Shown here: piece by piece, positions 12,673-47,950 of the stretch
How positions within the stretch are numbered: the stretch's first letter is position 1
Layout of the letters: each line of letters begins with the position of its first letter
Assembly (NCBI GenBank): GCA_043784925.1
Contig: JAYVXU010000025.1
Span: 22,649-86,648 of the forward strand
Length of the DNA: 64,000 bases
Direction of reading: 5' to 3'
Origin: Candidatus Adlerbacteria bacterium
GTDB lineage: Bacteria; Patescibacteriota; Minisyncoccia; Phycocordibacterales; SBAW01
The notes under the pieces: model-generated
Databases searched by the model: none
Told to the model about the DNA's origin: nothing
Seen by the model: only the letters and a program-made list of their open reading frames with translations
Program-made: the position numbers and the translations under genes

Positions 12673-12772
12673 ACTAAAACTCCAACGACTTGCCTTATTT
12701 TAAAAAGGTGGTAGGATGCGCCGAGCTTCTTATTAGGGCCTGGTGCATTCTATTATCTAATCTATAAGTATT

Positions 12773-29061: not shown

Positions 29062-29090
29062 AGCCGAGCAACCTATGCTCGGCTTTTTTA
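29062..29090 (+). terminator. Rho-independent terminator
   Basis: AGCCGAGC-AACCTAT-GCTCGGCT followed by TTTTTTATTT. The track ATG at 29075 lies inside this hairpin, so it is not the real start of the next gene. Confidence 0.75.
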
Positions 29091-29137
29091 TTTATACACA
29101 AGGGCTCTTTACAACCTCTGTTATACTAAAAGTATAT

Positions 29138-31885: not shown

Positions 31886-31950
31886 CCATGCCTTCCCTTG
31901 CAGTTAGAGAAAGAAAGGTATAATTACAGTATATTTTTATATAAATTTGT

Positions 31951-34326
31951 ATGAGTGAACATCAACCCCTTAGGGATAGAAGAGATAGAAGAGATAGAAG
32001 GAATGATGAATCCTCAATCCCTAAACATACACAAACTCTATCTACCCCTGTAGCTAGTGAGGGAGAGAGGAATGCCCCTAATAGAGAAGGTCGAGAAAGT
32101 GAGGAAGCAAACTCATCTTCTCCCAAACATGATACATTTAGTTGGAGTGAAGAATTGGGTACTAGGTTAAATAGTGAGGGTTTTTCTCAAGAGGAAATAT
32201 CTTTTATTCAAGGAGCAATGGTTGGGAAGAAGACCTCTAAAAAACATTTATTGAGTGTCATTGCTCTTAGTAAGGGGTTGTCTGATTTATCCGAAGAAGG
32301 AAAAGAAATGCGTAGGGAAGTGGTAGTTGAACCTGATTTTGAGTTAGAAAATTTTGCAACAATTAAAAAATTTGAGTCAATTCTTAACACCACTTCACAA
32401 GTTGCGTCTGCACCTGAACCGCCGGACCTTGCAAGAAGTGTGCCTTTTGAACCCACTGCGGCTCCTGCTGTTGCAGTGTCCTTGCCGCCAGACAACTTTC
32501 CTATTTCGAACGAGGTTCTTCATGAAGTAGCAAAAAAAATTGTTGAGCAAGAAAGAAAAGGTACAGCACAACCTAAGACTCAGACTGCTCCAGCTACGCC
32601 AGAAGTTACAAAAGATACTATTGAAATTTCTCCCGAGAGTTTAGGCTTAAGTTCAAAAATGTCCTTTATTGATGGCCCAACCTCCTCTGCGCAGGTTGAG
32701 TCGGAAATGCCTCCGGTCGAGCTAGTTGAACCACCTCACCCTGAGTTTGTTTTGAATTTAAAAAAATCAGGGCAATGGCAGACCCTGCCCTCAGGGATAA
32801 CGTCTTTAACCGATGTACAAATTCCAGAAAATACCCAAAACGTAACGTACCGCGCAGGCCCAGAAGGTGTATTGCAGGTTAAATGGACACGCGTACCACC
32901 AGAGAAATCTTCTTCAAAAAAGCCTTCCAAATCTAAAAAGGAAGAATCTGTTTCTCCAGGACCCATAAAGGTAAATTCTGAAGTATCTCCGGTAGAGCAA
33001 GGGGAAAGTGGTTCCACAACTCCAGAAGTAGCTCCAGCAACCCAACCTGTTACTAAACCCATTGCGGAGGTTAATCCAATTACAGGTCAAGAGAAGATGA
33101 GGAAAGAATTTAAAAACCACTTTGGGGAAGATACTTTTGTTACGGCAGACCCTAAAGCTGTAGACTCAAATATTGAAAAAAATACCAAAGAGTGGCGAGA
33201 ACATTTTGGAGAAGATGTTTTTGTTGAAGCTGATGCACCCGAAGCTTCGGTAGAGGCTAAAATAATTCCCCCATGGTATAGCAAATTTCCTAATTGGGTT
33301 AAGGATCAAAAGGAAAATATAAATCAAGAAGCACTTACAAGAGGAGGTGAGAGGGGCGTGAATGCTGTGCGAAAAACAGGGGAGTGGTACAAAAAACAAA
33401 ACCCCTGGATAAAAGTTGGGGTAGGAGGAGCTTTGATAGGACTTGGGCTTGGGGGAGGAGCGATTGGTGGAAGTCTCGGAGGCACAATATTTGCAATCGG
33501 TTTTACAGGTAAAGTTGTACAAAGGGGCTTGGCTGCTTCAGGAGCTTTTGTTCTTGCAGAAAGTATGTCGCGAGGATTAAGTAAAGATAAACAGCTTGAT
33601 AAAGTTTTTCTCAAAGATAAACATACACAACGTGGGCTGGCTGCGGCGGTACTCACCCTTGCTATGCCCTCAATATTTTCCTACACCGGAGCAGGAACAA
33701 TTGTGGGCCAAAAACTATCACTTGCTGGTAGTTGGTTATCAACCAATTTTGTATCTGCAACTAGATTTATAGGAGAATCCCAATTAGCAGGTGCATATCC
33801 GGCTGGTGTAGCGGTAGCACCTGTGGGCTTAACTCAGGTCGATTTATCCGATCCTGTTCAAACCGAGAAATTTACTGCACGGGCTAAAGGTCCAATACCC
33901 CACCTTACTCCTCCAAACCCTGCACCTGGAGTACCTATCACCCCATCCGCACCACCCAACGTTTCGGGCAGAATATTAGATACGCTTCAAGGAGCAAAAG
34001 TTACAAGTGGAAGCAATTTATGGAACACAATCTCAGGTACTCTTCCTTCTGAGCTTAATACGGCGCAACGTCAAAATGCGGTAGGGAATATCATACAGTG
34101 GCTTCGTGATAACCCGAACGCGCATAAAGATATACCTAACCTAACCAAAGTTATAGTTGGTACTCCACTCAGTAGTCTCCAGATTCCTCCGGAAGTTCTT
34201 CAAAACATTTATGATCATGCAAAAAATCCTCAAGTAAAATTAGGTACACTTTCCCTCGGGCCAGAAGCAACGCCAAAAACTACTTTAAAAGAAACTTTAG
34301 AGCAAGTAGCTAAAGAGCAGCATTAA
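31951..34326 (+). CDS. Large bitopic/polytopic protein with RDRRD repeat N-terminus, internal duplicated motif and Gly-rich TM block
   Basis: 791 aa. N-terminus RDRRDRRDRRNDE. Duplicated EFKNHFGEDTFVTADPKA / EWREHFGEDVFVEADAPEA. Central GVGGALIGLGLGGGAIGGSLGGTIFAIGFTG TM region. Pro-rich C-terminal domain. In operon with the ATPase. Confidence 0.55.
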   Translation: MSEHQPLRDRRDRRDRRNDESSIPKHTQTLSTPVASEGERNAPNREGRESEEANSSSPKHDTFSWSEELGTRLNSEGFSQEEISFIQGAMVGKKTSKKHLLSVIALSKGLSDLSEEGKEMRREVVVEPDFELENFATIKKFESILNTTSQVASAPEPPDLARSVPFEPTAAPAVAVSLPPDNFPISNEVLHEVAKKIVEQERKGTAQPKTQTAPATPEVTKDTIEISPESLGLSSKMSFIDGPTSSAQVESEMPPVELVEPPHPEFVLNLKKSGQWQTLPSGITSLTDVQIPENTQNVTYRAGPEGVLQVKWTRVPPEKSSSKKPSKSKKEESVSPGPIKVNSEVSPVEQGESGSTTPEVAPATQPVTKPIAEVNPITGQEKMRKEFKNHFGEDTFVTADPKAVDSNIEKNTKEWREHFGEDVFVEADAPEASVEAKIIPPWYSKFPNWVKDQKENINQEALTRGGERGVNAVRKTGEWYKKQNPWIKVGVGGALIGLGLGGGAIGGSLGGTIFAIGFTGKVVQRGLAASGAFVLAESMSRGLSKDKQLDKVFLKDKHTQRGLAAAVLTLAMPSIFSYTGAGTIVGQKLSLAGSWLSTNFVSATRFIGESQLAGAYPAGVAVAPVGLTQVDLSDPVQTEKFTARAKGPIPHLTPPNPAPGVPITPSAPPNVSGRILDTLQGAKVTSGSNLWNTISGTLPSELNTAQRQNAVGNIIQWLRDNPNAHKDIPNLTKVIVGTPLSSLQIPPEVLQNIYDHAKNPQVKLGTLSLGPEATPKTTLKETLEQVAKEQH

Positions 34327-34349
34327 CGGTAGGAGCGCCAACGGAAGTT

Positions 34350-34721
34350 ATGACCTCGCCAGGGGATGCAACAACGCTTGCCGCTATGGTTGGTTCACCA
34401 AGTGAAATGCCTCTTAATATAAGCTCTGAAACTATTGCCGACTATGCAATAAATAAATTTGGTGATGCTCAGAAAGGAGGATTTTTTAGTAAACTTTTTG
34501 GATCAAAGTTGGTTTCAAATATAGACTGGTCGAAGGTGAGTAAGTTACCAGCCTCGACCATTTTCGATGGAACCCCCAATAAATTCCTTACTCCAGTCCA
34601 GTTAGCCACACTTAAAGCTGACCTTTTGTCAGTACACAATAAAGTAGTTGGCCTTGATCTCAGCCATAAAACAGTGGAGGAGGTTATTAAAGTTGGTTTA
34701 GAAAAGAGGATACTGACCTAG
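34350..34721 (+). CDS. Hypothetical protein (123 aa), operon member
   Basis: Tightly spaced (23 nt) after the 791-aa gene, same strand. Confidence 0.45.
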   Translation: MTSPGDATTLAAMVGSPSEMPLNISSETIADYAINKFGDAQKGGFFSKLFGSKLVSNIDWSKVSKLPASTIFDGTPNKFLTPVQLATLKADLLSVHNKVVGLDLSHKTVEEVIKVGLEKRILT

Positions 34722-35172: not shown

Positions 35173-36465
35173 ATGAGTAAAAAAAGTTTACATAACTTAT
35201 TTGTAAGTAGCCTAGGCTTAGGAGCTCTCTTTTTTATTGGTATACTCGTGAGTACCGCCGGTATTCCAAGCACAACAAATGCAGAAAGTGTACCGCATCC
35301 TCCTCCGGTTATCTCCTCAATCTCTTCTTCGCCTAGTGACACGACCGCGATTATCACCTGGACAACGAGTGTGCCCGCAGATTCGCAAGTCGTGTTTGGC
35401 GTTTCCACTTTGAATAGCGTATTTTCTGAATTGCGTACGGCCCCGGTTACCAACCACTCGGTTGTTATTACCGACCTTAAGCCCAACACCCAGTACCACT
35501 TCCAAGTATTATCTCAAAACGCCGCAAGTCCGGACGCAAGTTCTGGCTTAGGTATTTCTGACGATGGAGTCTTCACAACCCAAGCTGCTCATACTACCTC
35601 AGCACCCGAGTCCGATGGTGTACATACCAATGACTCTTCCTCAGGGGCACCTCCAATAGCCAACTTTAATCTACCGGTTATTTCGCAATTATTGTCGACA
35701 ACAACCGACATAAGTGCGACAGTCACCTGGAATACCGACCAGCCAGCCACAGGGCAAATATTTTTTGGCACTTCTAGTTCGTACACGAACACAAGCTCAT
35801 TTACGAACGCATTTCAAAAAGATCACTCGATTGTGGTAAACAATCTCCTTCCTAATACGGAGTACCACTTCAACGTATATTCCGGAACGCAAGTTGGGGT
35901 AGCAAGTTCTAGTGACTATGTGTTCAAAACACAAACCCCTATTTCAAATCCTGTTGTGTCTACCGAGCCGCCTCCACCCGTAGCACCTCCTAATGCTGAA
36001 ATAGCATCCCTCAGGCAGGAGATAGAAGGTATGAAGCATCGGATGAATTTGTTTGAACGTATATTGGCTTGGATATTAGGCTACCCAGTTGATAACTTCG
36101 ACGCTAACCATTCGGCTACTCCACCTGCAACTCCTGCCACAGGACTTCCGCCAGTAAGCACGCCTTCTCCAACTCCACCTGCTACTCCCGCTCCTGAGGC
36201 AACCCCGAACACCGCAACAATTGGCCAAAATGGAGCTACCTATGCTCCTGGTGCATCCGTTGATTTTAGTGGTAAAAATTTTGGCCACGAAGAGTCGGTG
36301 ATCATCACAAAAGGGGGTGCGAGTGTTCGTCAGGTACACGCAGACGGAGGAGGTAACTTTTCGTCCGGATCTATCACGCTTCCGACTGACGCAGGAGCAT
36401 ACCAGTATGTTTTTACGGGTGAGCAGAGCCATATTTCAGCCACCGCTTCAATTACAGTTAAATAG
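35173..36465 (+). CDS. Surface protein with two fibronectin-III / purple-acid-phosphatase-N-like domains, coiled coil and Pro/Thr linker
   Basis: Signal/TM. Two repeats (TAIITWTTSVPADSQVVFGVS...NTQYHFQV ; ISATVTWNTDQPATGQIFFGTS...NTEYHFNV). Then TPPATPATGLPPVSTPSPTPPATPAPEATP linker and a C-terminal domain. Confidence 0.6.
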   Translation: MSKKSLHNLFVSSLGLGALFFIGILVSTAGIPSTTNAESVPHPPPVISSISSSPSDTTAIITWTTSVPADSQVVFGVSTLNSVFSELRTAPVTNHSVVITDLKPNTQYHFQVLSQNAASPDASSGLGISDDGVFTTQAAHTTSAPESDGVHTNDSSSGAPPIANFNLPVISQLLSTTTDISATVTWNTDQPATGQIFFGTSSSYTNTSSFTNAFQKDHSIVVNNLLPNTEYHFNVYSGTQVGVASSSDYVFKTQTPISNPVVSTEPPPPVAPPNAEIASLRQEIEGMKHRMNLFERILAWILGYPVDNFDANHSATPPATPATGLPPVSTPSPTPPATPAPEATPNTATIGQNGATYAPGASVDFSGKNFGHEESVIITKGGASVRQVHADGGGNFSSGSITLPTDAGAYQYVFTGEQSHISATASITVK

Positions 36466-36479: not shown

Positions 36480-36508
36480 TTGACAATACGCAAGGAAGGA
36501 GGTAGTAT
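36480..36508 (+). promoter_or_regulatory. Sigma70-like promoter TTGACA-17-TAGTAT with about 150-nt structured leader
   Basis: -35 at 36480-36485, -10 at 36503-36508. The leader contains hairpins CCGTCGTGTACGG and GGGTAT-N7-ATACCC upstream of the GT2 gene. Confidence 0.45.
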
Positions 36509-36653
36509 CCTCTCACACGCCGTCGTGTACGGTTGATGAACTTCAGACAAGCTTAATACAAGCTCAAGTATAGTCACTTGAGGTTTGGGTATACTCAAAA
36601 TACCCTGACTATCCTTGTGTCTGGATATATGAAAACACATGAATTATTAACCG

Positions 36654-37799
36654 ATGCACGCAAATCAAAAGAAACCAATTATGCAACCCATTACACTCAG
36701 TTTATTTTTTCCAACCTACAACGAGGAAAAAAATATAGAAGAAACTATTTTGCGCACCATTCAGGTGGTAGAAGATTCGCCATATATATCTGACTATGAG
36801 CTTATTGTGGTTAATGATGGGAGTTCGGATGCCACCAAAATAATTGCCGAAAATTTGGCCCTCGAGCATCCGCATGTCAGAGTCATTAACCACGAAAAGA
36901 ATAGTGGCTATGGTGCTGCCCTTAAAACAGGTATTACAGAAGCTCGTATGGACTATGTCTTTTTTACCGATGCAGACTTACAGTTTGACATCATCGAACT
37001 CCAGAACCTCCTAGTGCATTTGCCTGAATATAAAGTAGTGATAGGGTATCGAGCCCCCCGGCAAGACCCCGCTATGCGCCTTCTCAACGCATGGGTGTGG
37101 AACAAGCTCAACCGAATACTATTTGGCCTCAAAATTCGAGATATTGATTGTGCTTTTAAATTATTTAAACGCGAAAATGTACAAGCCCTCTCGCTTCAGT
37201 CACGGGGTGCAATGATCAGTGCTGAAACACTTATACGCCTTACTCGAGAAGGAGTGGTTATTAAAGAAGTTCCTGTATCTCATTTGCCCCGTAAGGCAGG
37301 TTCTCCAACAGGTGCAAAGTTGTCAGTTATTTTGCGTGCTATGCAAGAGATGGCGGAATTATATCGAGGTGAACTTGGTAGCATAACCCAAAAAGAAGCA
37401 CTCAAATTTATGACTGTTGGAGTACTCAATACTCTTTTGGATGCTGCTTTCTACATATTGCTGACACGAGGAACTGTTCTATTTGCAGACCATTTAGTTG
37501 TGGCAAAATTTCTTTCATTCCTTGCAGGCACTGTTTCGTCACTCCTTATTAATCGTTACTGGACGTTTGGAATGCGCTCACGATTGACATGGAGCGAAGT
37601 TGCACGTTTTTACGCGATGACCTCTGTGTCTATTGCTATAAACGTAGCGCTAATGAACTTCTTTGTGAGTATGGGTATATATGACTTAGTGGCACTCTGC
37701 ATCACCACAGTATTTACATTTATGGCTAACTTCACCCTTTCTAAAATGTGGGTGTTTAAGAAGCGAGAAGCAGAGAAACAACTTATTCATCAAGCATAA
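36654..37799 (+). CDS. GT2 polyprenyl-phosphate glycosyltransferase fused to GtrA-like membrane domain
   Basis: LIVVNDGSSDAT, GYGAALKTG, FFTDADLQFD (DxD region). C-terminal 4-TM GtrA-like module. Possible start at the ATG at 36681. Confidence 0.8.
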   Translation: MHANQKKPIMQPITLSLFFPTYNEEKNIEETILRTIQVVEDSPYISDYELIVVNDGSSDATKIIAENLALEHPHVRVINHEKNSGYGAALKTGITEARMDYVFFTDADLQFDIIELQNLLVHLPEYKVVIGYRAPRQDPAMRLLNAWVWNKLNRILFGLKIRDIDCAFKLFKRENVQALSLQSRGAMISAETLIRLTREGVVIKEVPVSHLPRKAGSPTGAKLSVILRAMQEMAELYRGELGSITQKEALKFMTVGVLNTLLDAAFYILLTRGTVLFADHLVVAKFLSFLAGTVSSLLINRYWTFGMRSRLTWSEVARFYAMTSVSIAINVALMNFFVSMGIYDLVALCITTVFTFMANFTLSKMWVFKKREAEKQLIHQA

Positions 37800-37806
37800 G
37801 CTATAT

Positions 37807-38262
37807 ATGAAAAAAACAACTCTACAACTTACTCTTTTCATCGGAATCATTTTGATGAGTGTGGGAACTCCTGCATTTGCTGCTACAAAAACACACATCA
37901 AAAAGCATACTTCAAACACAGGAACTCAGGTAGTAGTGCCTCCTTCTTCGACTAGTGCTGCGTCTTCATCTGAGGCACAAGGATCTACAGAACTTCAGAG
38001 TACCTCTACCACTACTTCCCATGAGTACGCTGCAGCAGTTCTTGGCGTAACTCTAGGTTCCCCAGATTCTAATCAGCCAGGTGCTCCCGTATATTCGCTT
38101 TCTAATAAGTTGACTCTACTGCAAACACAAGTGTACACGGTCCTTATACTACTCCTTGTGGTGCTTGGTATTTTCCTTATAAGTGAGTTAGACATTGTTG
38201 AAGCTTCTGCTTTACTTCGACAGGTATTTACCGGACCCCAGAGTCGTCGCGCGCTACAATAA
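37807..38262 (+). CDS. Secreted Ser/Thr-rich protein with C-terminal TM, hypothetical
   Basis: 151 aa, signal peptide, S/T-rich tract, C-terminal hydrophobic helix. Confidence 0.45.
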   Translation: MKKTTLQLTLFIGIILMSVGTPAFAATKTHIKKHTSNTGTQVVVPPSSTSAASSSEAQGSTELQSTSTTTSHEYAAAVLGVTLGSPDSNQPGAPVYSLSNKLTLLQTQVYTVLILLLVVLGIFLISELDIVEASALLRQVFTGPQSRRALQ

Positions 38263-38274
38263 ATTATTTCCACT

Positions 38275-39498
38275 ATGATTACTCGACTATTCGGCTCAAT
38301 ACTGCTATGTATCGCACTCATATTGGCGGTTGTTGTTGTATACCGAAATAGTGGAGCGGGGGAAGTGCCTCTTATCTTTTCTCCGGTGCAGTTGCTCAGT
38401 GCTACATGGCTTACGTACACTCAGTCGTATGTAGAGCCTAATACCTATCGAACAATTGATACCCAAAGAGGTGTCACCACTTCGGAAGGTCAGAGTTACA
38501 CGATGCTTCGCTCAGCATGGATGGCTGATAGAAAAACCTTTGACGGGTCTTGGAAATGGACTCAAACAAATATGTATCATACCAACGATCACTTGCTTGC
38601 ATGGTTATGGGGAAAAAAACCAGACGGTACCTACGGAGTCCTTCTTGAACAAAATGGCGAAACAAGTGCAAGTGACGCTGACACTGACCTAGCGTTGTCC
38701 CTGGTGTTTGCGTACGCGCGTTGGCAAGACCCACAGTATTTAGTGGACGCTCGAAATATTATCCAAGACATCTGGGCAAAAGAAGTTATCGAAATTAATG
38801 GTGAGCCTTATTTGACTGCGGATGATCTTGAAAAGAATTCTAAAGGTGAATACGCGATAATTAACCCATCCTACTTGAGCCCGGCCGCATATAAAATATT
38901 TGCCCAAGTTGACCCCGCACACCCCTGGAGTCGGGTAGCTGACACATCGTACAAGCTCCTAGCACAAAGTATTGATTTACCGTTTGATACACCGGGGAGT
39001 GCGCATCTTCCACCTGATTGGATACAAATTGACAAAAAGACTGGGGATATATCAGCAATTGAAAATACTACAAATACCTCTCGTTTTGGTTTCGATGCTT
39101 TGCGTGTGCCGTATCGCGTAGCACTTGACTGGGAGTGGTTTAAGGACGAACGTGCTAAAAGTACACTTCAAAAAATGAATTTCCTGTCCTTGCAGTGGAA
39201 TAAAAACCACACACTCTCTTCAACCTATACCCACGATGGCCAAGTCTTTACTGCGTCTGAGGCTCCAGCTATGTATGGAGGCACAATTGGGTACTTCATC
39301 GTGGCTGGACCAGCGAGTGTTGCCTCAGATGTGTATCATCAAAAATTAGTATTTTTGTATGATCCTGGAGCAAACACCTGGAAAGAACCGCTTTCCTACT
39401 ATGACGATAACTGGGTTTGGTTTGGCATCGCACTGTATAACCACCTTCTGCCTAACCTTGCCGCTTCACTTCCACCTTCTGCCTTTATTCAAAATTAA
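38275..39498 (+). CDS. Glycoside hydrolase family 8 (BcsZ-like endo-beta-1,4-glucanase), membrane-anchored
   Basis: N-terminal TM. TSEGQSYTML matches GH8 EGQSYGM. ASDADTDLA matches the GH8 A(S/T)D(A/G)D.D motif. Confidence 0.7.
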   Translation: MITRLFGSILLCIALILAVVVVYRNSGAGEVPLIFSPVQLLSATWLTYTQSYVEPNTYRTIDTQRGVTTSEGQSYTMLRSAWMADRKTFDGSWKWTQTNMYHTNDHLLAWLWGKKPDGTYGVLLEQNGETSASDADTDLALSLVFAYARWQDPQYLVDARNIIQDIWAKEVIEINGEPYLTADDLEKNSKGEYAIINPSYLSPAAYKIFAQVDPAHPWSRVADTSYKLLAQSIDLPFDTPGSAHLPPDWIQIDKKTGDISAIENTTNTSRFGFDALRVPYRVALDWEWFKDERAKSTLQKMNFLSLQWNKNHTLSSTYTHDGQVFTASEAPAMYGGTIGYFIVAGPASVASDVYHQKLVFLYDPGANTWKEPLSYYDDNWVWFGIALYNHLLPNLAASLPPSAFIQN

Positions 39499-39518
39499 TA
39501 ACTAATATAAGCACTACC

Positions 39519-41090
39519 ATGAGCCCGTACGAAGAAAAAGACTACATACACATGAAAAAGGATTTCCTTAAGACAGATGCTCCAAAAGCATTACTTATTT
39601 TCAATGCATTTTTTGCAGGGTTGTATTTTGTGATGATCACTTTCTTTTTTACGGTGGATAATAAAATCCTTTTTTATCTTCTTGTAGCGGGGGAAGTGTT
39701 TCACCTTTGGCAAGTATTTACTTTCCTTTACACCATTTGGGACACTTCGTACGTGTCTCCAAAAACAACACGTACCAGGCCGGGGGTCGACGTGTTCATT
39801 ACCGTAGCGGGGGAGCCGGTCGAGTTAGTTGAAAAAACAATTACGGCAGCTCAAGCCATGAACTATCCAGATTTTGAAATTCATATTCTCAATGATGGTT
39901 TTGTAGCAAATCGTGATAATTGGCGAGACATTGAGGCTCTTTCCTCGCGCCTTGGGGTGCATTGTATTACCCGCACGATCCCCGGAGGTGCAAAGGCGGG
40001 GAACATTAACAATGCTTTGAAGTTGACTGAGCGTCCTTTGGTTGCTATTTTTGACGCCGACCATGTGCCACATTCTGATTTCTTAACAAAAACAGCTGCA
40101 TACTTTACCGACGCAAAGGTTGGGTTTGTGCAGACCCCACAGTTTTACAAAAACTATGCAGAAAATTATTTAACGCGTAGCTCCTGGGAACAACAAGAGC
40201 TCTTCTTTGGGCCTATATGTAAAGGAAAAAATAGACTCAATAGTGCAACTATGTGCGGCACTAATATGCTTATTTCTCGCACGGCCCTTGAGGTTGTCGG
40301 AGGCATGTATACTGAGTCGATTGCAGAAGATTTTGTGACGGGGCTTATAATGCACTCTCGGGGGTATCGCTCTGTATACCATGGCGAAGTACTTGCAGAA
40401 GGCCTTGCCACTGAGGATCTTCTTTCCTACTCAAAACAACAATTTAGATGGGCACGTGGGGCTTTGGATGTTATCTTTCGCTTTAATCCATTCTTTATGC
40501 GGGGCCTGACGTTTGCGCAAAGAATCCAGTACATTTCTTCAGCAAGTTTCTATCTGTCAGGAATTTTCGTCGTGATAGATGCACTCCTTCCCATCGTCTA
40601 CTTCTTTACGGGTCAGGTTGCGGTCCATTTAAACAGCATGTTGCTTGCGACCATATTCTTGCCATACTTCTTCTTGACTATGTATGTGATCCAACGCTCT
40701 TCAAACTTTACCTTTACCTTTCCGAGCCTCGGATTTTCCATGGGTGGATTTAATATCCATCTTCGCGCCTTGTACTCGGCGGTAACATTCCAAAAAGCAG
40801 CATTTTCTATTACTCAAAAATATAAAGAAGAAGGGAACTTCCTCCCCTTGGTGAAGTGGCATATAGCCTACATTGTGCTTGTGGTTGTTGGAGTTGGGGT
40901 TGCGTTTGTCCGCGAAGGTTTGTCTGCATCGCTTATAAATAACGCTGCGTGGGGATTGCTCAATAGTATTGTCCTCATACCGTTCATTAAGGCCGCACTT
41001 CCTGACCGCGCAGATTCTCCAGCTTTAGCTATGCCCAAACCACACCTGCAGCTTCGAAAGAAAAAAATATATGGCACAACTGAGAACTAA
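39519..41090 (+). CDS. Cellulose-synthase-like GT2 processive glycosyltransferase (no PilZ domain)
   Basis: DAD/DxD motifs (IFDADHVP), QQFRWARG = QxxRW, multiple TM flanking. C-terminus lacks RxxxR/DxSxxG PilZ motifs. Confidence 0.75.
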   Translation: MSPYEEKDYIHMKKDFLKTDAPKALLIFNAFFAGLYFVMITFFFTVDNKILFYLLVAGEVFHLWQVFTFLYTIWDTSYVSPKTTRTRPGVDVFITVAGEPVELVEKTITAAQAMNYPDFEIHILNDGFVANRDNWRDIEALSSRLGVHCITRTIPGGAKAGNINNALKLTERPLVAIFDADHVPHSDFLTKTAAYFTDAKVGFVQTPQFYKNYAENYLTRSSWEQQELFFGPICKGKNRLNSATMCGTNMLISRTALEVVGGMYTESIAEDFVTGLIMHSRGYRSVYHGEVLAEGLATEDLLSYSKQQFRWARGALDVIFRFNPFFMRGLTFAQRIQYISSASFYLSGIFVVIDALLPIVYFFTGQVAVHLNSMLLATIFLPYFFLTMYVIQRSSNFTFTFPSLGFSMGGFNIHLRALYSAVTFQKAAFSITQKYKEEGNFLPLVKWHIAYIVLVVVGVGVAFVREGLSASLINNAAWGLLNSIVLIPFIKAALPDRADSPALAMPKPHLQLRKKKIYGTTEN

Positions 41091-42594
41091 AACAATCGCG
41101 CTACTACTCACTATGATGAGTGTGCCCATACTTCTGTCGTACTTTTTCTTCATGAGTCAAAGTTTACGACTCGATGAGTCGCAAAGTTTGTGGCAAACCA
41201 GTCGAAACGTACTTGATATATTTTCCATTGTAGCAGGTGACGTCCATGTTCCTCTGTTCCACATATTGCTCCATTTTTGGATTCTTCTCTTTGGAGAAAC
41301 AGTGCAAATTGCTCGAGGTATGTCGCTTTTCTTCTTCCTTTTGAGTATCCCCGCGCTGTATGTGCTCGGGAAGTACGCCTATGACCGAACGGTCGGACTT
41401 TTTGCTGCGCTCCTTTTTTCTATTTCTCCATTCATGAATTGGTATGGAAATGAGATACGAATGTACACCTTGTTTACTTTTTGTGTGATTTTAAATCATT
41501 TCTTTTTTCTGCATATTTTTAAAGCAAATCTATCTAAAGTCACACCGCAAAATCGAAAAATCAAAGATAGTATGTGGGTCGGCTATACCCTCACTGCAGT
41601 TGTCGGTGTTTTTTCGCACTACTTCTTCTTCCTTATTTTGGCGTCGCAGCTTGTATTTTATTTTTTGCGTCGAGACTTGTTTTCGTCAGGCACTCTACAG
41701 AGGTTGGGAGTGGCAGCAGCCGTAGTGCTCGGCACCATTGCTCCTTGGGGTTGGTACGTGCTCCATAAAGGCCAGGCAGCTTTTCAAGAACCAACACTTG
41801 GCACACCAACAACGGTTAACTTGTTTAGTTCAGTTGCTCAATTTATGTTTGGTTTCCAAAGTGACAAGATAAACACTTTCTTCCTTTCTCTCTGGCCCGT
41901 GAGTGTGATCTTTGGTCTGTTTGCTTTACGGCGAGGTCAAAAAATGCAGCCAGAGACCGAATATTTTCTGGTGGCCGTTGTGGTACCTTTTTTCCTCGCT
42001 TTCTTTGGAAGTTTTATACTGGCTCCTATCTTTGTGAGCCGCTATTTAATATTTACCGTACCACCATTGTACCTCCTTATCTCAAAGGTCTGTAGTAATT
42101 ATTCTCCACGGATGGCCACGACACTTCGGTATGTGCTTGTTGGGGTCATGATATGTACTTTGCTTATTGAAATCGCAAATTCGCAAGCTCCCGTTAAAGA
42201 GAATTATAAAGATGCTGCGCAATATTTAACAACACACGCAACAGTGCAAGATGTGATTGTGTTGTCGGCCCCTTTTACCATATATCCTATTCAATATTAT
42301 TATCGCGGTGCGGTACCGGTGAAGACATTGCCTGAATGGAATCAGTATGCGTACGGACCTATACCATCGTTTAATGAGTCGACTCTTCCCGCGCAAGCAA
42401 CAGAGGTTGCTGACAAAAGTCAAAATCTGTACCTACTTCTCAGCTATGACCAAGGATACGAAAATAAAATTCGCGTGTATTTCGACACACATTACCAGCG
42501 TACTGACCAAAAGAACTTTTCTAATGGGTTAAATCTGTATGTGTATCGTTTGCGGTATGACACCGGTTTGTCGGCCATAAGTTCCAATAAATAA
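41071..42594 (+). CDS. GT-C fold glycosyltransferase (GT39/PMT_2, ArnT-like)
   Basis: 507 aa, polytopic. Early motif YVLGKYAYDRTVGLFAALLFSISPFMNWYG typical of the PMT_2 family. Overlaps the upstream gene by 20 nt. Confidence 0.6.
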   Translation: MAQLRTKTIALLLTMMSVPILLSYFFFMSQSLRLDESQSLWQTSRNVLDIFSIVAGDVHVPLFHILLHFWILLFGETVQIARGMSLFFFLLSIPALYVLGKYAYDRTVGLFAALLFSISPFMNWYGNEIRMYTLFTFCVILNHFFFLHIFKANLSKVTPQNRKIKDSMWVGYTLTAVVGVFSHYFFFLILASQLVFYFLRRDLFSSGTLQRLGVAAAVVLGTIAPWGWYVLHKGQAAFQEPTLGTPTTVNLFSSVAQFMFGFQSDKINTFFLSLWPVSVIFGLFALRRGQKMQPETEYFLVAVVVPFFLAFFGSFILAPIFVSRYLIFTVPPLYLLISKVCSNYSPRMATTLRYVLVGVMICTLLIEIANSQAPVKENYKDAAQYLTTHATVQDVIVLSAPFTIYPIQYYYRGAVPVKTLPEWNQYAYGPIPSFNESTLPAQATEVADKSQNLYLLLSYDQGYENKIRVYFDTHYQRTDQKNFSNGLNLYVYRLRYDTGLSAISSNK

Positions 42595-42605
42595 AAAAGC
42601 AGGTG

Positions 42606-43364
42606 CTACTCCTCCTGTGTAAGAGTCAAAAGGGAAGCAGCGCTCCATGCTTGCACGCAACATGCTCCTTGACCACATAGGTCAGGGCTTAAGAGTCGTT
42701 TAACAACATGAGGAATGTATTCGGTTTTGAGTATGCAGTCAAGTGAGCCGTCCTGAGCTTTTGTTGTAGCAAAAAAACAATGTCCCATACTTGACCGAGC
42801 GGAGGTAAGTGGACGGCCCGTACCATCGAGTGCAAACGCTAATGATATAGGTCCAGCGCCGTGCAATATAAACGACTGATTGAACCTCTCTTTAAGCGCC
42901 ATTGCTTCCTGTATGAGCTCCTGACCACGCGTAGTATCAGAATGTAGAATAATTAGATACCCCATGCGTGTAAAGCTGCGTACGCGTACCCTCGGGCCTC
43001 TACTGGGGCTATTGGATATTGTGGTCGTTCGTCATAATTTTCAAAAAATACTGATTCTGTTGAATCCATCCAACTTTGCGTGCGAAGTACACCCAAATGT
43101 ACGTTTTGGGTCGTACGCGAGCCCTAAGTTGAGTAATGTCCAATAATTAACTCCATACAGATCTTTCACACGCGCTTCACGAAGTGCGCGAGGGTAGACA
43201 GATTCAAGCCGGGACGAGCTCATAGAGTCGCCAGATGCAAAAAGGGTTACCTCGTGCGCTCGTCGTACTAGCTCTTCTGTAAGTCCATATACAACTCTTT
43301 CAGTACCACCATATTTTTTAGGTGGTACGCGCTCCGCTATGGGAGCGATCTGTGCAGATTTTCA
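42606..43364 (-). pseudogene. Degraded GT4 glycosyltransferase (frameshifts plus internal deletions)
   Basis: Minus-strand translation shows MKI then a +1 shift into APIAERVPPKKYGGTERVVYGLTEELVRRAHEVTLFASGDS (GT4 N-terminal domain), stops, and a C-terminal piece with the GT4 EAMA motif (GQELIQEAMALKE). Total under 760 nt against about 1.1 kb for an intact GT4. Confidence 0.5.
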
Positions 43365-44564
43365 TTACCGCTCTACAATGTCGTAGTCAGATGAATGCTT
43401 TATGAAGACTAAATCGACATAGAGGATGCCGATGGCTATAAGCATCATAACGCTAGGGATCCTCAAATCCGGATGTAGGCCTGCGAACCAAGATACTTGA
43501 GATAAATAGGGCATGTATGCCACTAATGAAGCGCCAACAATAAATACGGGTATAAACCAGCGAGATGGTCTATAGAAGACATATATAACGGAAAAGAGAT
43601 CTGCTAAATAAAAATATCGCTCATGCATGCGAGGAAGTAAGTAAGGGAGTACTGCCACACAGAGGGTGGAAATAAGCACGAGAGTCGGCACATTCATTTC
43701 TTTTTTCAGATATACATATACGGTAATAATCAGAGCACAGAGGATAGCCACAACAAGACCAGCGGCAAATAAAGTTTGCTCAGAAAGGCCAAAAATATCG
43801 GCATGTAGTATCGCAAATATATTTTGAGCCGAGACACTAAGAGATGTGTACTCACTGGACTGGCGAGCGTACACCAGCAAAAGGTCGCCCAGTGACCCGC
43901 CGCCAAGCCGGGCGGGGATTATGGATAGAAAATAAATGCAAGGAATAGCTAGTAAATATCCAGCACTACTTTCTTTTCGCAAACAATAGCCAATGAGCAC
44001 GGGTAAGAAAAATATTGCTTGTAACTTGCAAGAAAGAGCAACAGACAAACTGACCACGGCCGAAAGGGGCATGTCGCGAATAATAAAGTAGAGGCAAAGT
44101 ACTACCCCGGCCGCATATATAGAGTCAGACTGTCCCCAAGTGGCACCGTTAAGCACCAGGGTCGGAATAGAAAACATTACCGCAAATATAAAAAATAATT
44201 TTTCTTTGGGGTAGTTTTCTTTCGTGGTGTATTTAATCAGTCTATAAGTTATGTATGCGATGAGGACGTCAAACAAGACGGACATGGTTTTAGTGCTGTA
44301 GAGGCTGGATACGGGAATAAAGGTGAGGAGTTTGAGAAGATATAAGTAGAGTGGAGCATAATCAGAAAAACGCTGGGTAAATGCAGTAAGTCCTGGGTGC
44401 TCTTGGAGTACGACAAACCACTTGCTTACAAAGTAAATGTAATCCGAGGTCTGAATAGGGTAGGAGATTAACCTAAAAAGTACTGACAGTATAAGTAGTG
44501 CACTTCCACCAAAGTAGCCCGTCCATATGGAAGGGCTACTGCGAGGCGTTGTCCCCAATAGCAT
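43365..44564 (-). CDS. Polytopic membrane protein, GT-C-like (DUF2029/mannosyltransferase-like), hypothetical
   Basis: 399 aa, about 10 TM helices, within a glycosyltransferase cluster. Confidence 0.4.
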   Translation of the reverse strand: MLLGTTPRSSPSIWTGYFGGSALLILSVLFRLISYPIQTSDYIYFVSKWFVVLQEHPGLTAFTQRFSDYAPLYLYLLKLLTFIPVSSLYSTKTMSVLFDVLIAYITYRLIKYTTKENYPKEKLFFIFAVMFSIPTLVLNGATWGQSDSIYAAGVVLCLYFIIRDMPLSAVVSLSVALSCKLQAIFFLPVLIGYCLRKESSAGYLLAIPCIYFLSIIPARLGGGSLGDLLLVYARQSSEYTSLSVSAQNIFAILHADIFGLSEQTLFAAGLVVAILCALIITVYVYLKKEMNVPTLVLISTLCVAVLPYLLPRMHERYFYLADLFSVIYVFYRPSRWFIPVFIVGASLVAYMPYLSQVSWFAGLHPDLRIPSVMMLIAIGILYVDLVFIKHSSDYDIVER

Positions 44565-44613
44565 GTCTCTACTGTAACATCTATTCTAGAACTTTCAAGT
44601 GACAGGACCGGTA

Positions 44614-45990
44614 CTAGTGCTGAGCGTTTTGTACTAATTTCACTGCGTAATCAGGCCACCAAGTACCTGCACCTGGGCCACCGTTACAATACCCGTCACT
44701 TTCTCCTGGGACTTTAAGCCATAAGTAGGCGTCTATAAGCGGGTTCCCACTTGCCGATGTGGGGGTGGGCCCAATAGCGCTTCCTGTTGGGTTACACCAC
44801 TGCCCATTACTTCCAGCGCCATTGCGAGAAGTATCAATGATAAAATGTTTCCCCCCAACTTTCTGACTCACGTCACCCCCGTACTGAGCTTCGTTGTTGG
44901 TTGAAATAAAGTTTGAAACATTGACGGCAAAACCGTCTGCATTTTTTATGCCTGCATCATTTAGTCTTTGGCCCATAACTCCTGCTTCTATCCAGTTAGA
45001 ATGTCCGGCATCAATGTAAACTTTGGTATTAGCATTCCTTTTGAGAATAGAAGTTGCTTGTGAGATGAGGGATAAACGGGTTGACTGGTCGTTTGATGAT
45101 AAGCATCCCATCTGAGACAAAGCGTCAGGTTCAAGTATAACTATCGCTTTTCCTGAGCCAATGCCCTGGGCCAAGTTGGTAATCCAGTTTATATACCCGT
45201 CTGGGTTGTTTGAGCCACCACTTGAGTAACCTCCACAGTCGCGCTGAGGGATATTATAGGCCACCAGAAGGGCTGCAGTATTTTGATTTGTAGCTGCTGA
45301 CACTAAAGCGCGAACATCGTTTTGAACATTACTGTTCCAATCTCCAAACCATTTTGCCGTTGGTTGTGTAGCGAGCAAGTTCATGGCTGAAGAACCGGTG
45401 GGGTAATTTTGCCAAACGCTTTTTTGTTGGGCAGCTTTTGAATTTGGGTCTACGTATAATTTAATATCTTGAACGGGGTTTTGAGTTATATTCGGTGTAG
45501 GCAGGGGAGAGGGCGCAGGAGTTGGCGCAAGTTGGGGCGCAGGAGCCGGAGTAAAACTTGCAGTACTTACGGGGTCGATGTACACCGCAACTGATTGCTG
45601 TCCTATTATCACACCATTTTTTCGCGCAATAAAGTTAATGCTGTATGGACCATTGCCGTGCCAATTCCACGCGGTCACATCAACGGAGGCTTCTTTGTGT
45701 GGGTAACCGACGGAAGAGGTGTCCATAACATTCCACTTTCCTCCGTCAACTTCCCAGAGCATGTCATATTGAGATGCGTCTAGCCCAGTGACGACGGCTT
45801 TAAAAGGCTGCACTCCTTGCAAGTGAGCACCACTGGTTGGCCACCATACTTCGATAGGCATAGATGCTGCGTGTGCTGATAGAGGAATTGCACTAGTAAA
45901 GATAAAACTAAAAATTGTTACTACTGATAAAATTACATTACTAATTATTTTTTTACTATATGGATTTATTTTTTCAATCATCATTGTCAC
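44614..45990 (-). CDS. Secreted glycoside hydrolase family 6 (cellulase) with N-terminal beta-rich domain and Pro-rich linker
   Basis: GH6 signature 1 VAYNIPQRDCGG (V.Y..P.RDC) and signature 2 VILEPDALSQ (EPD[SA]L). PAPAPQLAPTPAPSPLPTP linker. N-terminal TM/signal. Confidence 0.8.
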   Translation of the reverse strand: MTMMIEKINPYSKKIISNVILSVVTIFSFIFTSAIPLSAHAASMPIEVWWPTSGAHLQGVQPFKAVVTGLDASQYDMLWEVDGGKWNVMDTSSVGYPHKEASVDVTAWNWHGNGPYSINFIARKNGVIIGQQSVAVYIDPVSTASFTPAPAPQLAPTPAPSPLPTPNITQNPVQDIKLYVDPNSKAAQQKSVWQNYPTGSSAMNLLATQPTAKWFGDWNSNVQNDVRALVSAATNQNTAALLVAYNIPQRDCGGYSSGGSNNPDGYINWITNLAQGIGSGKAIVILEPDALSQMGCLSSNDQSTRLSLISQATSILKRNANTKVYIDAGHSNWIEAGVMGQRLNDAGIKNADGFAVNVSNFISTNNEAQYGGDVSQKVGGKHFIIDTSRNGAGSNGQWCNPTGSAIGPTPTSASGNPLIDAYLWLKVPGESDGYCNGGPGAGTWWPDYAVKLVQNAQH

Positions 45991-46266: not shown

Positions 46267-47337
46267 TTAGAAATACCCTCCTTTTTTATATTGAGAAAAA
46301 TCCATAGTAATTTCATTTTCACGTTGTTCTTGAGCTTCAGCTGGGGAAGGAGCGATTGTATAGCGAGCAGGTTTGGAAGGAAAATGCACTAAAACAGTAG
46401 TGCCTTGATTAGCAACACTTTTGATAGTTATTTTCCCTCTATGTACGCGCACTAACTCGCTTGCGATAGTAAGTCCTAACCCACTACCCGTTTTAAGCAC
46501 TGTTCTGTCGCGCGAAGTGTCCACTCTATAAAAAGGGTCAAATATGTGCGCAAGATCTTTGGGTGCAATACCAATACCACGGTCTGCTACTGAAAAAACT
46601 ATAGTGCCTCTGTGGTCGGGTTTGACGGACACCACAACCGTTATGCCGCGTCCCTGGGGGGTGTAGCTAATGGCATTTTTTATAATGTTTGTCATTATCT
46701 GCTCGAGCGCAGTTGCATTGCCCCATACAATCCGTGACTTATGTTTCTCGAGCGTGAGGTATACCTCCCTTTCTTTCGCAAAGTCAGAAAGATGATCGGC
46801 TACCTGGTCGAGCAAGGGACCCAAATCAATTTTGGAAAATTCAATTCTCTCAGGACGAGTCAAGGCGTTAAGTGAAAGAAGATTGTTTATTATGTCCGAG
46901 ATTCGCTCGAGTTCGCGCAATACTTCGCTATGCACTTCAAGAGTAGATTCAGGGAGTGTGTCGTCCAGAAGCGCTACTTCAGTCGAGGTCTTAATGGTGG
47001 ACAAGGGGGTACGAAGTTCGTGAGCAATGTTACTGATAAATAATTTTTGATAGTAAAGTATTTCTCGAACCGGTTTAAGAGCAATAGCAGCAAACAGAAG
47101 GGTGCACCCAACAGCACCTATTAGTAGGGCTGCAAAAGCAAAGGCGCTATAGTGCGGCAACCGGGTACTTACAAGGAATGCAAAAAGGCACGTGCTTGCA
47201 AATCCAATTGAAAGAGCACTTAGATTTAAGATAGTGCGGAAAAAGAGATCATTCTTGTACCTCCCCCGTAAGCCGATACCCGACTCCGCGTACTGTCTCA
47301 AAAAGTCTCGCACTGTCTTGTCCTGTATCTGAGCCAT
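46267..47337 (-). CDS. Sensor histidine kinase
   Basis: Two N-terminal TM, H-box AHELRTPL, HATPase_c motifs (GLGLTIASELV). Overlaps the RR gene 3' end by 89 nt. Alternative GTG/TTG starts also overlap. Confidence 0.85.
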   Translation of the reverse strand: MAQIQDKTVRDFLRQYAESGIGLRGRYKNDLFFRTILNLSALSIGFASTCLFAFLVSTRLPHYSAFAFAALLIGAVGCTLLFAAIALKPVREILYYQKLFISNIAHELRTPLSTIKTSTEVALLDDTLPESTLEVHSEVLRELERISDIINNLLSLNALTRPERIEFSKIDLGPLLDQVADHLSDFAKEREVYLTLEKHKSRIVWGNATALEQIMTNIIKNAISYTPQGRGITVVVSVKPDHRGTIVFSVADRGIGIAPKDLAHIFDPFYRVDTSRDRTVLKTGSGLGLTIASELVRVHRGKITIKSVANQGTTVLVHFPSKPARYTIAPSPAEAQEQRENEITMDFSQYKKGGYF

Positions 47338-47950
47338 GTTCTAATTTTTTTCGTAAGTTTTTCATATGAACATCAAGCACGTTGCTCCACGAGAGGGAAT
47401 TGAAATCCCATACATGGTCAAACAAAAATTCTCGTGAAAGTACTTTGTTTGGCTCGCGCATAAAACACTCAAGAAGTGCGAATTCTTTAAGGGTCAACGA
47501 CACTTCAGCCCCGTCTTGTCGTACAACTCGGGTGCCGGTATCCATCTCGAGTGGCCCTACTTTAATAACTACAGACTTGGTGAGTGCAGGCCTTCGAAGT
47601 ACTGAATTCATGCGAGCAAGCAATTCTCCAAAAGAGAAAGGTTTGACGATATAGTCGTCGGCACCTTTATTGAGTAGGTCTATTTTGTGTTCGGTTTCGT
47701 TGCGCGCCGTCAAAATAATAATAGGGGTGGTAACATTTTCGCTTCGCACTTTTTCGGTAATCATTTCACCTCCAATACCAGGTAGCATAAGATCAAGGAT
47801 AATAAGGTCGTACTCGTCTCGGTAGAGTAAAATTCGGCTCAACGCTTTTTCGCTGTCAGACAACCAGTCTACAGCGTAGCCTTTCATTTCAAGGCCTTTT
47901 TTGAGAGCCTTTGCAAGCTTCTCTTCGTCTTCAACTATAAGTAGATGCAT
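47249..47950 (-). CDS. OmpR-family response regulator
   Basis: Receiver domain (LIVEDEEKLAKAL...DLMLPG) plus winged-helix C-terminal domain (VWDFN...RLTGEV). Confidence 0.85.
   Translation of the reverse strand: MHLLIVEDEEKLAKALKKGLEMKGYAVDWLSDSEKALSRILLYRDEYDLIILDLMLPGIGGEMITEKVRSENVTTPIIILTARNETEHKIDLLNKGADDYIVKPFSFGELLARMNSVLRRPALTKSVVIKVGPLEMDTGTRVVRQDGAEVSLTLKEFALLECFMREPNKVLSREFLFDHVWDFNSLSWSNVLDVHMKNLRKKLEHGSDTGQDSARLFETVRGVGYRLTGEVQE

Follow-up and report, generated by a model that had tools for sequence, protein, structure and literature searches.

What does a bacterium build with seven carbohydrate-related genes packed into less than 10 kb, and do the membrane-embedded glycosyltransferases encoded among them serve separate pathways or a single machine? 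These questions are raised by a gene cluster of Candidatus Adlerbacteria, one of the bacteria of the candidate phyla radiation (CPR), found in a 64-kb stretch of contig JAYVXU010000025.1 (hereinafter the window). An earlier note on this DNA had listed the seven genes as a surface-glycan island, and searches of the open reading frames (ORFs) against Pfam, NCBIfam and PDB confirm all seven where it had placed them. The main interest of the locus, however, lies not in an "island" but in a module of a GH8 glycoside hydrolase, a BcsA-type synthase and a GT-C glycosyltransferase, often joined by a small tail-anchored protein, and in natural fusions of its parts. Synthase-dependent secretion of polysaccharides such as cellulose, alginate, poly-N-acetylglucosamine and hyaluronan is well studied; to our knowledge, the known bacterial cellulose synthases rely on BcsB- or GlxA-type partners, and their products are modified by BcsG or acetyltransferases. 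We read the present cluster as encoding a conserved machine of the CPR envelope that makes an extracellular polysaccharide by way of a synthase. The product would most likely be a cellulose-like β-1,4-glucan, which the GT-C most likely decorates; we give this composite reading somewhat more than an even chance.

The synthase (39519–41090, + strand) is a processive family 2 glycosyltransferase (GT2) that matches the Pfam models Cellulose_synt and Glyco_tranf_2_3; the NCBI record of one homologue (P0241) begins at its M12, i.e., at position 39552. BcsA proteins of Rhodobacter sphaeroides and Escherichia coli match it at E~2e-49; with R. sphaeroides BcsA the alignment covers BcsA residues 81–566 and ends before the PilZ domain. 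Its GT-A motifs read NDG126, D179-A-D181-H, A-E270-D271 and Q307-Q-F-R310-W311, and its gating loop, F429-S-I-T432-Q-K434 (FSITQK), is of the FxVTxK type; across 76 orthologues the elements NDG, DAD(H), CGTN, AED, QQFRW and F..T.K are each preserved in 74–76. The AlphaFold2 (AF2) model (pLDDT 89.5, pTM 0.87) starts with an amphipathic N-terminal helix and two transmembrane (TM) helices, continues through the GT-A domain, the QQFRW interface helix, two further TM helices, interface helices and the gating loop to a last TM pair (helices at 23–43, 49–73, 332–364, 373–394, 442–466 and 470–493), and ends in a disordered, low-confidence tail of 30 residues (494–523). Foldseek superimposes it on the E. 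coli and R. sphaeroides BcsA structures with TM-scores of 0.79–0.82, plant CesA ranking behind. The earlier note had called this protein a BcsA-like GT2 with QxxRW but without PilZ and had proposed structure prediction as a check on its channel: QQFRW is present, a PilZ domain is absent by Pfam, by the BcsA alignment and from the AF2 model, and the model shows the six-TM BcsA-type channel fold. Further, no protein of the cluster or its flanks matches the BcsB family in Pfam or NCBIfam; it is the GT-C that holds the partner position in the cluster where BcsB would stand. Sequence and predicted structure thus identify a BcsA-type channel-forming enzyme that lacks PilZ and goes without BcsB.

To place the synthase in context, we drew its relatives from one genome per GTDB species, which yielded 80 loci, nearly all in metagenome-assembled genomes of Patescibacteria/CPR. 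The nearest, labelled Adlerbacteria or Kaiserbacteria, share 69–74% identity with it, and by label the set spans Paceibacteria/Parcubacteria, WWE3, Saccharibacteria, Microgenomates (Levy-, Davies- and Blackburnbacteria), Doudnabacteria, Wildermuthbacteria and Gracilibacteria, with G+C contents ranging from 32% to 67%. When the window proteins are searched against these loci with tblastn, GH8 adjoins the synthase in 75 and a PMT_2-like GT-C does so in 76. ORF boundaries put the three genes on a single strand, 65 loci showing the order GH8-synthase-GT-C and eight the order GH8-GT-C-synthase, with junctions mostly of −20 to +15 nucleotides. Because it recurs in 75–76 of 80 species, this clustering goes far beyond chance; neither chance nor recent transfer can explain it, and the triad is an old functional unit. 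Three loci labelled "uncultured Gammaproteobacteria" (L052, L056 and L062, the last on a 1.57-Mb contig) carry the CPR-type triad at 46–48% identity and 40–44% GC, and these labels look doubtful.

The third member of the triad, the GT-C (41071–42594, + strand), starts 20 nucleotides inside the synthase gene and combines a multi-helix membrane domain with a C-terminal α/β extracytoplasmic domain. In the window protein the PMT_2 model reaches 23.2 bits, under the Pfam cut-off of 26.1; most of its homologues carry the PMT_2 annotation, which rises above the cut-off in the fusion proteins described below. Its AF2 model (pLDDT 89.6, pTM 0.89) finds ArnT as the top PDB match in Foldseek (5ezm/5f15, E=7e-8, whole-chain TM-score 0.56–0.60), followed by STT3, AglB, ALG12, ALG9 and Pmt4, and Pfam detects neither PMT (PF02366) nor MIR domains in it. 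The assignment to GT39 as a PMT/ArnT-like enzyme made in the earlier note therefore survives in its ArnT-like half, GT39 itself being too specific, and "PMT_2/ArnT-like GT-C" is a defensible name on the sequence and the model. Among 74 orthologues spanning 29–74% identity, the first-loop motif L34-D35-E36-x-Q38 is invariant, as are P61, W124, R130, H183, R324 and Y325, with H59 kept in 73. Such a pattern fits an active lipid-phosphate-sugar transferase rather than a scaffold.

In two of the CPR loci, of very different composition (L018, 56% GC; L035, 32.5% GC), one continuous ORF of 995–998 codons covers both synthase and GT-C. In L035 a linker of about 22 residues leads from the synthase, at its cytoplasmic C-terminus, into the first helix of the GT-C, an arrangement in which both halves would retain their native topology and the two membrane domains would be neighbours. 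The adjacency in 76 of 80 loci, the 20-nucleotide overlap and the fusions together make it most likely, as far as sequence can tell, that synthase and GT-C are one machine. A HMMER search of 1.84 billion cluster representatives recovered several proteins of about 1000 residues among its top matches. By Pfam, synthase::PMT_2 fusions are P0361 (the L018 protein, HEY0908469.1), P0363, P0364, P0369 and P0382, and P0379 adds two N-terminal MshEN domains to such a fusion. Other domains are fused to the N-terminus of the synthase as well: a Ser/Thr kinase domain in P0381 and a DPM1-like GT2 in P0371 and P0375, the latter with 30% identity (E=3e-22) to the GT2 domain of the GT2-GtrA protein encoded in the window. 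On one high-GC contig (L084, 61% GC, 5567–13142) a Pkinase gene directly precedes that of the GT2::synthase P0371, after which come a PMT-type GT-C of 697 residues and GH8.

In three further contigs, L081 (67% GC), L083 (73% GC) and that of P0369, the synthase::GT-C fusion lies beside GH26 and not GH8, with GH5 as well in L081; the surroundings of these fusions further include genes for LPG_synthase_TM, GT4 or GGDEF proteins. In the L081 protein (6001–10521; 1506 residues), a BcsA-like synthase and a PMT_2 GT-C are combined with two MshEN domains, and GGDEF, GH26 and GH5 genes lie nearby, which suggests that in this distant relative control by cyclic di-GMP (c-di-GMP) is exerted via MshEN instead of PilZ. 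The grouping of a synthase with a GT-C, a lipid-sugar GT2 and a matching hydrolase thus extends beyond the CPR, and the hydrolase family varies by lineage. GH26 is a mannanase family, and some of these lineages may make β-mannan-type polymers; the family of the hydrolase may thus indicate the type of polymer.

If the GT-C uses a lipid-linked sugar, a candidate source for it is encoded at the head of the operon. The first gene (36654–37799, + strand) specifies a DPM1/GtrB-like GT2 (residues 16–176) fused to a four-helix GtrA-type domain (residues 251–368), both above their Pfam cut-offs (Glycos_transf_2, 2.9e-29, 102.6 bits; GtrA_DPMS_TM, 1.8e-18, 67.3 bits), in agreement with the family call of the earlier note. 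Its nearest NCBIfam models, AglJ, ArnC, PgfS, DPhHxTase and PpgS, all stay under their equivalog cut-offs, and the product is predicted to be a polyprenyl-phosphate-sugar synthase with a built-in flippase-like module. By tblastn, a GT2 match, with or without GtrA, lies near the synthase gene in 37 of 80 loci. Within 4 kb of the core, GT2 and GtrA occur together in 22 loci, GT2 alone in 11, GT2 with LPG_synthase_TM in three, and LPG_synthase_TM alone in two. The LPG_synthase_TM proteins of L051 (7811–8797), L061 (3253–4227) and L068 (7731–8726) match Pfam at E=1e-26 to 4e-28 and are encoded upstream of GH8 in the very slot of GT2-GtrA; others occur at L054, L059 and L083. This MprF-type, flippase-like family seems to stand in for the flippase-like part without being homologous to it. 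The exchange in the same slot and the GT2::synthase fusions together support the proposal that a lipid-linked sugar is made and flipped for the GT-C.

These data also bear on whether the GT-C need be an enzyme at all. BcsA activity requires only the membrane anchor of BcsB, and Streptomyces CslA requires the membrane-anchored GlxA (PMC11022532); since no BcsB is encoded in the cluster and the fusions show physical proximity, the GT-C might act mainly as a structural substitute for BcsB or GlxA that stabilizes the channel and guides the chain, with little or no glycosyl transfer. In a scaffold one would not expect L-D-E-x-Q, or the Arg, His and Tyr residues that are candidates for phosphate binding, to be the same in all 74 orthologues, nor does this idea account for a lipid-sugar synthase gene linked or fused in many lineages, and we regard it as very improbable. 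We accordingly go on with the GT-C as a probable transferase.

What polymer would such a transferase meet? The cluster encodes two hydrolases, and the family calls of the earlier note hold for both. The membrane-anchored, BcsZ/CMCax-like GH8 endoglucanase (38275–39498, + strand) matches Glyco_hydro_8 at 1.1e-40 (140.2 bits against a cut-off of 24); its best NCBIfam model is BcsZ (1.7e-37), at 129 bits against an equivalog cut-off of 299 that it does not reach, and in the PDB it comes closest to two enzymes from cellulose operons, CMCax (1wzz) and E. coli BcsZ (3qxf), together with 5gy3. The Glu of its SEGQ motif (E71) and the Asp of ASDAD (D134) are each conserved in 70 of 71 orthologues. The GH6 endoglucanase (44614–45990, − strand; Glyco_hydro_6 4.2e-60, 204.6 bits against a cut-off of 27), secreted or anchored, has a hydrophobic N-terminal signal, a domain of about 90 residues (~45–135), a Pro-rich linker and a catalytic domain (187–437) in which the motifs RDC, EPDAL, DAGH, NVSN and PGESDG can be read. 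Its best PDB matches, Mycobacterium tuberculosis Cel6 (1uoz/1up0, E~1e-64), 6fao and Thermobifida fusca E2 (1tml), are of the short endo-type of about 290 residues. The ~90-residue domain has no Pfam match; a novel module of carbohydrate-binding or Ig-like type is one possibility. With a GH8 nearest to BcsZ and CMCax and a GH6 of the endoglucanase type as neighbours of the synthase, synthesis and remodelling of a β-1,4-glucan-like exopolymer, as proposed in the earlier note, is upheld as the probable activity of the cluster.

The same hydrolases could instead be catabolic and serve feeding or invasion by attacking cellulose that belongs to a host or partner or comes from plant detritus, with the GT2 product unrelated to them. 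The GH6 invites this thought: it is secreted and endoglucanase-like, has an extra N-terminal domain and linker as in free cellulases, and is missing from 46 of 80 loci, which places it outside the core. For the GH8, by contrast, the link to the synthase holds in 75 of 80 loci and the closest relatives are the biosynthetic enzymes BcsZ and CMCax; moreover, the cluster and its immediate flanks yielded no sugar transporter, β-glucosidase or cellobiose phosphorylase. By tblastn, GH6 lies near the core (within flanks of about 10 kb) in the other 34 loci, usually in convergent orientation, and Streptomyces CslA offers a precedent in its pairing with the GH6 enzyme CslZ (PMC9040799). This linkage and this precedent favour action on the cell's own polymer over the host or partner cellulose that had been named as a possible target, and we consider the catabolic alternative quite unlikely.

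Between GT2-GtrA and GH8 lies a gene that had gone unmentioned, an ORF for a small secreted tail-anchored protein of 151 residues (37807–38262, + strand) with a signal peptide, an S/T-rich low-complexity region, a juxtamembrane motif and a C-terminal TM helix. It has no match in Pfam or NCBIfam. Relatives have ORFs in the same slot directly upstream of GH8 whose N-terminal part varies in length and composition, down to minimal forms of 55–64 residues that lack the S/T/P-rich part altogether (L001, 8556–8738; L010, 6002–6169; L029, 4227–4421). What they share is the tail, roughly Y-x4-6-L-x-P/A-x2-T-x2-L, which leads into a TM helix and then basic residues. An iterative hidden Markov model (HMM) search drifted onto signal peptides, and a first-round HMM with manual inspection of the tails was used instead: the model, built from 11 tails, found eight further ORFs, all ending at the GH8 start, and by eye the motif and TM helix are present in about 32 of 71 assessable loci. 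WWE3 loci retain the triad; upstream of GH8, four of seven have no qualifying ORF and the other three no ORF with a hydrophobic tail. Since BcsA needs the BcsB anchor and CslA needs GlxA, the small protein is proposed as a structural subunit; by this analogy it is a candidate subunit of the synthase complex and analogue of the BcsB TM anchor or, failing that, a candidate glycosylation substrate.

The family and fold assignments, the motif conservation, the gene linkage and the fusions are shown above; from them we infer, as follows, what the polymer is, which sugar is donated and to what the GT-C transfers it, and what the small protein does. The synthase would polymerize a sugar from a cytoplasmic nucleotide-sugar (UDP-glucose, by analogy with BcsA) and extrude the chain through its own channel. 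Having neither PilZ nor BcsB, it would not be gated by c-di-GMP in the manner of BcsA, and regulation would be transcriptional or constitutive rather than via that nucleotide. GT2-GtrA would make, and probably flip, a polyprenyl-phosphate-sugar donor, which the GT-C, as an obligate partner beside the channel, would use on the outer face of the membrane, transferring the sugar onto the emerging chain in a co-synthetic decoration (branching). This would follow the logic of BcsG acting on cellulose from a lipid donor or of GtrB/GtrA/GT-C sets acting on wall polymers. The membrane-anchored GH8 and the secreted GH6 would trim or release chains, the small tail-anchored protein may replace the TM anchor of BcsB, and a second GT-C encoded nearby, related to GT87, may add a further sugar. 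We also considered that the GT-C might ligate the glucan to an acceptor and rejected this, reasoning that a glucan made by a synthase carries no activating lipid at its reducing end and so cannot be a GT-C donor. Decoration is the most likely role because such a glucan can only be the acceptor of the GT-C; taken by itself, we would still put the claim that the GT-C decorates the polymer at less than an even chance.

Several points weigh against this reading. Every step of the mechanism rests on evidence from sequences or models, and the 80 loci comprise only relatives sharing exact peptide words with the query, which limits any claim on prevalence in the CPR. In 42 of the 80, neither a GT2, with or without GtrA, nor a flippase-like gene was found at 4 kb or less from the core; more distant CPR lineages must carry the donor genes elsewhere in the genome. 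As to the polymer, the best NCBIfam match of the synthase, TIGR03030, stands at 260.6 bits against a cut-off of 699.1, far below the equivalog level, and NF008558 at 196.8 against 992. The synthase has CGTN at the position of FFCGS, the acceptor-binding motif of BcsA, so that its sugar specificity could differ. The GH8 enzyme PssZ of Listeria acts on a non-glucan exopolysaccharide, and a GH8 neighbour is therefore no proof of cellulose. Finally, the GH26 neighbours in the high-GC relatives mean that the wider family probably makes more than one polymer. As to the GT-C, PMT-type enzymes classically glycosylate Ser/Thr-rich proteins, and a Ser/Thr-rich protein is encoded two genes upstream.

The points on the polymer lead to the alternative that the machine works as described on a different polymer: a β-mannan or glucomannan, a mixed-linkage glucan or an amino-sugar polymer. 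CGTN in place of FFCGS, the scores under the cellulose-synthase cut-offs and the pairing of distant fusion relatives with GH26 and GH5 all speak for it, as does the breadth of GH8, a family that also includes chitosanases, xylanases and licheninases. Yet BcsA is the nearest solved relative of the synthase by a wide margin (E=2e-49, against only 1e-15 to 1e-10 for the NCBIfam PgaC and NodC models), the GH8 is nearest to the cellulose-operon clade, and the closest characterized relatives of the GH6 are β-1,4-endoglucanases. Another polymer is hence a possibility to be taken seriously, if a clearly less probable one than a β-1,4-glucan-like chain, to which we give better than even odds.

The point on the GT-C raises the alternative that two systems share one operon, a BcsA-like/GH8 β-glucan system and a Ppm/Pmt-style protein O-glycosylation system. 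In the latter, GT2-GtrA would supply polyprenyl-P-hexose with which the PMT_2-like GT-C modifies Ser/Thr-rich surface proteins, for instance the 151-residue protein or a protein with fibronectin type III (Fn3) domains encoded upstream of the cluster. The GT-C belongs to the PMT_2 superfamily, PgfS of a protein-glycosylation system is among the nearest NCBIfam matches of the GT2, the small protein is S/T/P-rich in many loci, and the Fn3 protein has long S/T/P-rich linkers. The earlier note had likewise set glucan synthesis and protein or lipid glycosylation side by side as parallel activities. Against such a separation, the GT-C is locked to the synthase: the fusions, the adjacency in 76 of 80 loci and the overlapping or near-abutting genes (by 20 nucleotides in the window) argue for one machine. 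In addition, the GT-C is still present where the small protein is reduced to its minimal 55–64-residue forms without the S/T-rich part, the triad is kept in the WWE3 loci, for most of which no small protein was found, and neither MIR nor PMT (PF02366) is matched. Two independent systems therefore appear unlikely to us, and we retain a single machine with decoration by the GT-C as the preferred reading.

Set beside known systems, the cluster combines features that are otherwise apart. With the proteobacterial Bcs system it shares the homologous synthase core (GT-A domain, QxxRW, gating loop and six-helix channel; TM-score 0.79–0.82, E=2e-49) and a GH8 gene adjoining the synthase, and the proposed role of the GT-C resembles that of E. 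coli BcsG, a membrane enzyme that docks on BcsA and draws on a lipid donor to modify cellulose as it is made. It differs in lacking PilZ, BcsB, BcsC and BcsG, in a synthase without the two N-terminal helices of BcsA, in a single-membrane envelope and in scores that do not reach the NCBIfam equivalog cut-offs, and its GT-C would add a sugar where BcsG adds phosphoethanolamine. In three-component extracytoplasmic glycosylation, as in GtrABC, CsbB/GtcA/YfhO, ArnC/ArnT and mycobacterial PpgS/Rv3779, a GtrB-like GT2, a GtrA-family flippase and a GT-C add single sugars to pre-made surface polymers outside the membrane. Here, too, a DPM1/GtrB-like GT2 with GtrA is encoded with a GT-C of PMT_2/ArnT fold that has a conserved acidic motif in its first loop; in contrast to those systems, GT2 and GtrA are one polypeptide in the window, and the GT-C is coupled or fused to a processive synthase instead of serving O-antigen, teichoic acid, lipid A or arabinan. 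The Bacillus subtilis ydaJKLMN and Listeria pssA-E/pssZ loci also encode GH8 with a BcsA-like GT2 for a synthase-dependent exopolysaccharide in a Gram-positive setting, but have c-di-GMP receptors (YdaK, PssE) and BcsB-like proteins (YdaN, PssD) and no GT-C partner; the Listeria pss product is a polymer of N-acetylmannosamine and galactose, not a glucan.

One precedent is Streptomyces CslA-GlxA-CslZ, likewise of Gram-positive type, in which a BcsA-like synthase needing an anchored partner other than BcsB is accompanied by a GH6 and deposits a glucan at the cell surface (PMC11022532, PMC9040799). Its partner GlxA, however, is a copper radical oxidase and not a GT-C, the system has neither GH8 nor a lipid-sugar synthase, and CslA, unlike the synthase of the window, retains partial PilZ elements; it responds to c-di-GMP (PMC11022532). 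As far as the indexed texts cover the literature, we found no description of a synthase-GT-C module or of a CPR cellulose synthase. It is conceivable, and we offer it tentatively, that the CPR and some high-GC bacteria have an unrecognized class of cellulose-type synthase complex in which a polyprenyl-phosphate-sugar-dependent GT-C is an integral subunit, in some lineages a fused one, that glycosylates the polymer at the channel exit; the product would be a branched, xyloglucan- or galactomannan-like surface glycan formed co-synthetically on the outside of the membrane, and a small tail-anchored protein would stand in for BcsB.

As to the layout of the locus, ORF listing and translation show five + strand genes almost without intergenic space (36654–42594), toward which a − strand block converges: GH6 (45990–44614), the second GT-C (44564–43365) and then 770 bp of broken reading frames. 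A promoter-like site upstream of the + strand operon (36480–36508, + strand; TTGACA-17-TAGTAT, 10 of 12 matches, 146 nucleotides before the first gene) has the top promoter score within 35–47 kb; the number of such sites in the region is not above the shuffled expectation, and the assignment is only suggestive. Immediately upstream of GH6 and on the same strand, Pfam identifies a histidine kinase (46267–47337, − strand) and an OmpR-type response regulator (47249–47950, − strand). L001, L009, L038 and L041 have such a pair in their flanks as well, spaced and oriented differently from locus to locus; this two-component pair is a possible, weakly associated transcriptional control of the cluster.

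G+C runs at 0.43–0.45 over the cluster, against 0.38–0.48 over the window, and no tRNA and no Rfam family was matched anywhere in the 64 kb. In the closest relative, L001, gene order is identical from the Fn3 protein to the two-component system. Elsewhere the window encodes ordinary chromosomal functions such as ClpP, LexA, RNase J, GroEL, a sortase and an ATPase of the type IV secretion system type. Given flat composition, syntenic relatives and the lack of tRNA, the cluster is a conserved chromosomal one; the term "island" does not apply, and we reject a mobile or horizontally acquired origin on composition and synteny.

Two groups of neighbouring genes may be recorded. Directly upstream of the cluster (35173–36465, + strand) is encoded the Fn3 protein, a secreted protein of 430 residues with two Fn3 domains of the purple-acid-phosphatase N-terminal type, long S/T/P-rich linkers and a C-terminal domain without a family; its counterpart in L001 is 32% identical, and it is possibly a surface or glycosylated protein. 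Just before it (29075–34721, + strand) lie genes for a 936-residue ATPase of the VirB4/TraG/HerA type and for proteins of 791 and 123 residues without family matches, a block that may be related to a CPR type IV secretion or pilus apparatus. On the other side (48229–51493, − strand), the gene for a 684-residue phosphoenolpyruvate-utilizing protein (PPDK_N and mobile domain) overlaps one for a 407-residue protein without a family match.

The second GT-C (43365–44564, − strand), a multi-TM protein of 399 residues, has no Pfam match of its own at E<=0.01 and appears from its homologues to be GT87/DUF2029-like ("Gpi18-like mannosyltransferase"): 37 of 41, at 39–59% identity, match PF09594 (GT87; best E=2e-14) and eight match Alg6_Alg8, which bears out the second GT-C-like protein listed earlier. 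It has an invariant D40-Y41 in its first loop and a HERYFY motif. As it lies near the core in only six of 80 loci, we regard the gene as accessory. Its stop codon overlaps the ATG of a decayed GT4 gene (TAATG; 43092–43365, − strand), which retains the N-terminal ~85 residues (Glyco_transf_4, 29.9 bits against a cut-off of 28.5) and, by three-frame translation, has a +1 frameshift through an extra A in an A-run after codon 3, the rest of the gene being deleted. The region had been described as a single GT4 pseudogene: the GT4 remnant is real, and next to it lies a separate relic of an archaeal-type amylo-α-1,6-glucosidase (GDE; 42606–43090, − strand), comprising about the C-terminal quarter (~160 residues) with one internal frameshift. 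This relic matches PDB 7vma_A at E=1.5e-11 over residues 360–458 of 620, and Pfam GDE_C at E=0.19 only; a deletion joins the GT4 N-terminus to the C-terminal part of the GDE gene. An intact GT4 and GDE pair was not found in the flanks of the 80 relatives, which gave one weak GT4 match (L045). Most simply, the relics would represent a decayed α-glucan gene pair unrelated to the β-glucan system.

If the proposed machine is as we read it, it would constitute a new route to a decorated β-glycan, the backbone being built from a nucleotide sugar inside the cell and the side groups from a lipid-linked sugar outside. The switch between GH8 and GH26 among lineages provides a handle on the evolution of polymer specificity in this synthase family, and the natural synthase::GT-C fusions are directly testable constructs. 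The genomes of CPR bacteria are tiny, and their presumed way of life is attachment to other cells. The retention of a tightly packed export machine in such genomes therefore makes it a good candidate for a part in adhesion and envelope biology, and, if the reading holds, the CPR polymer could be a matrix that mediates attachment to host cells.

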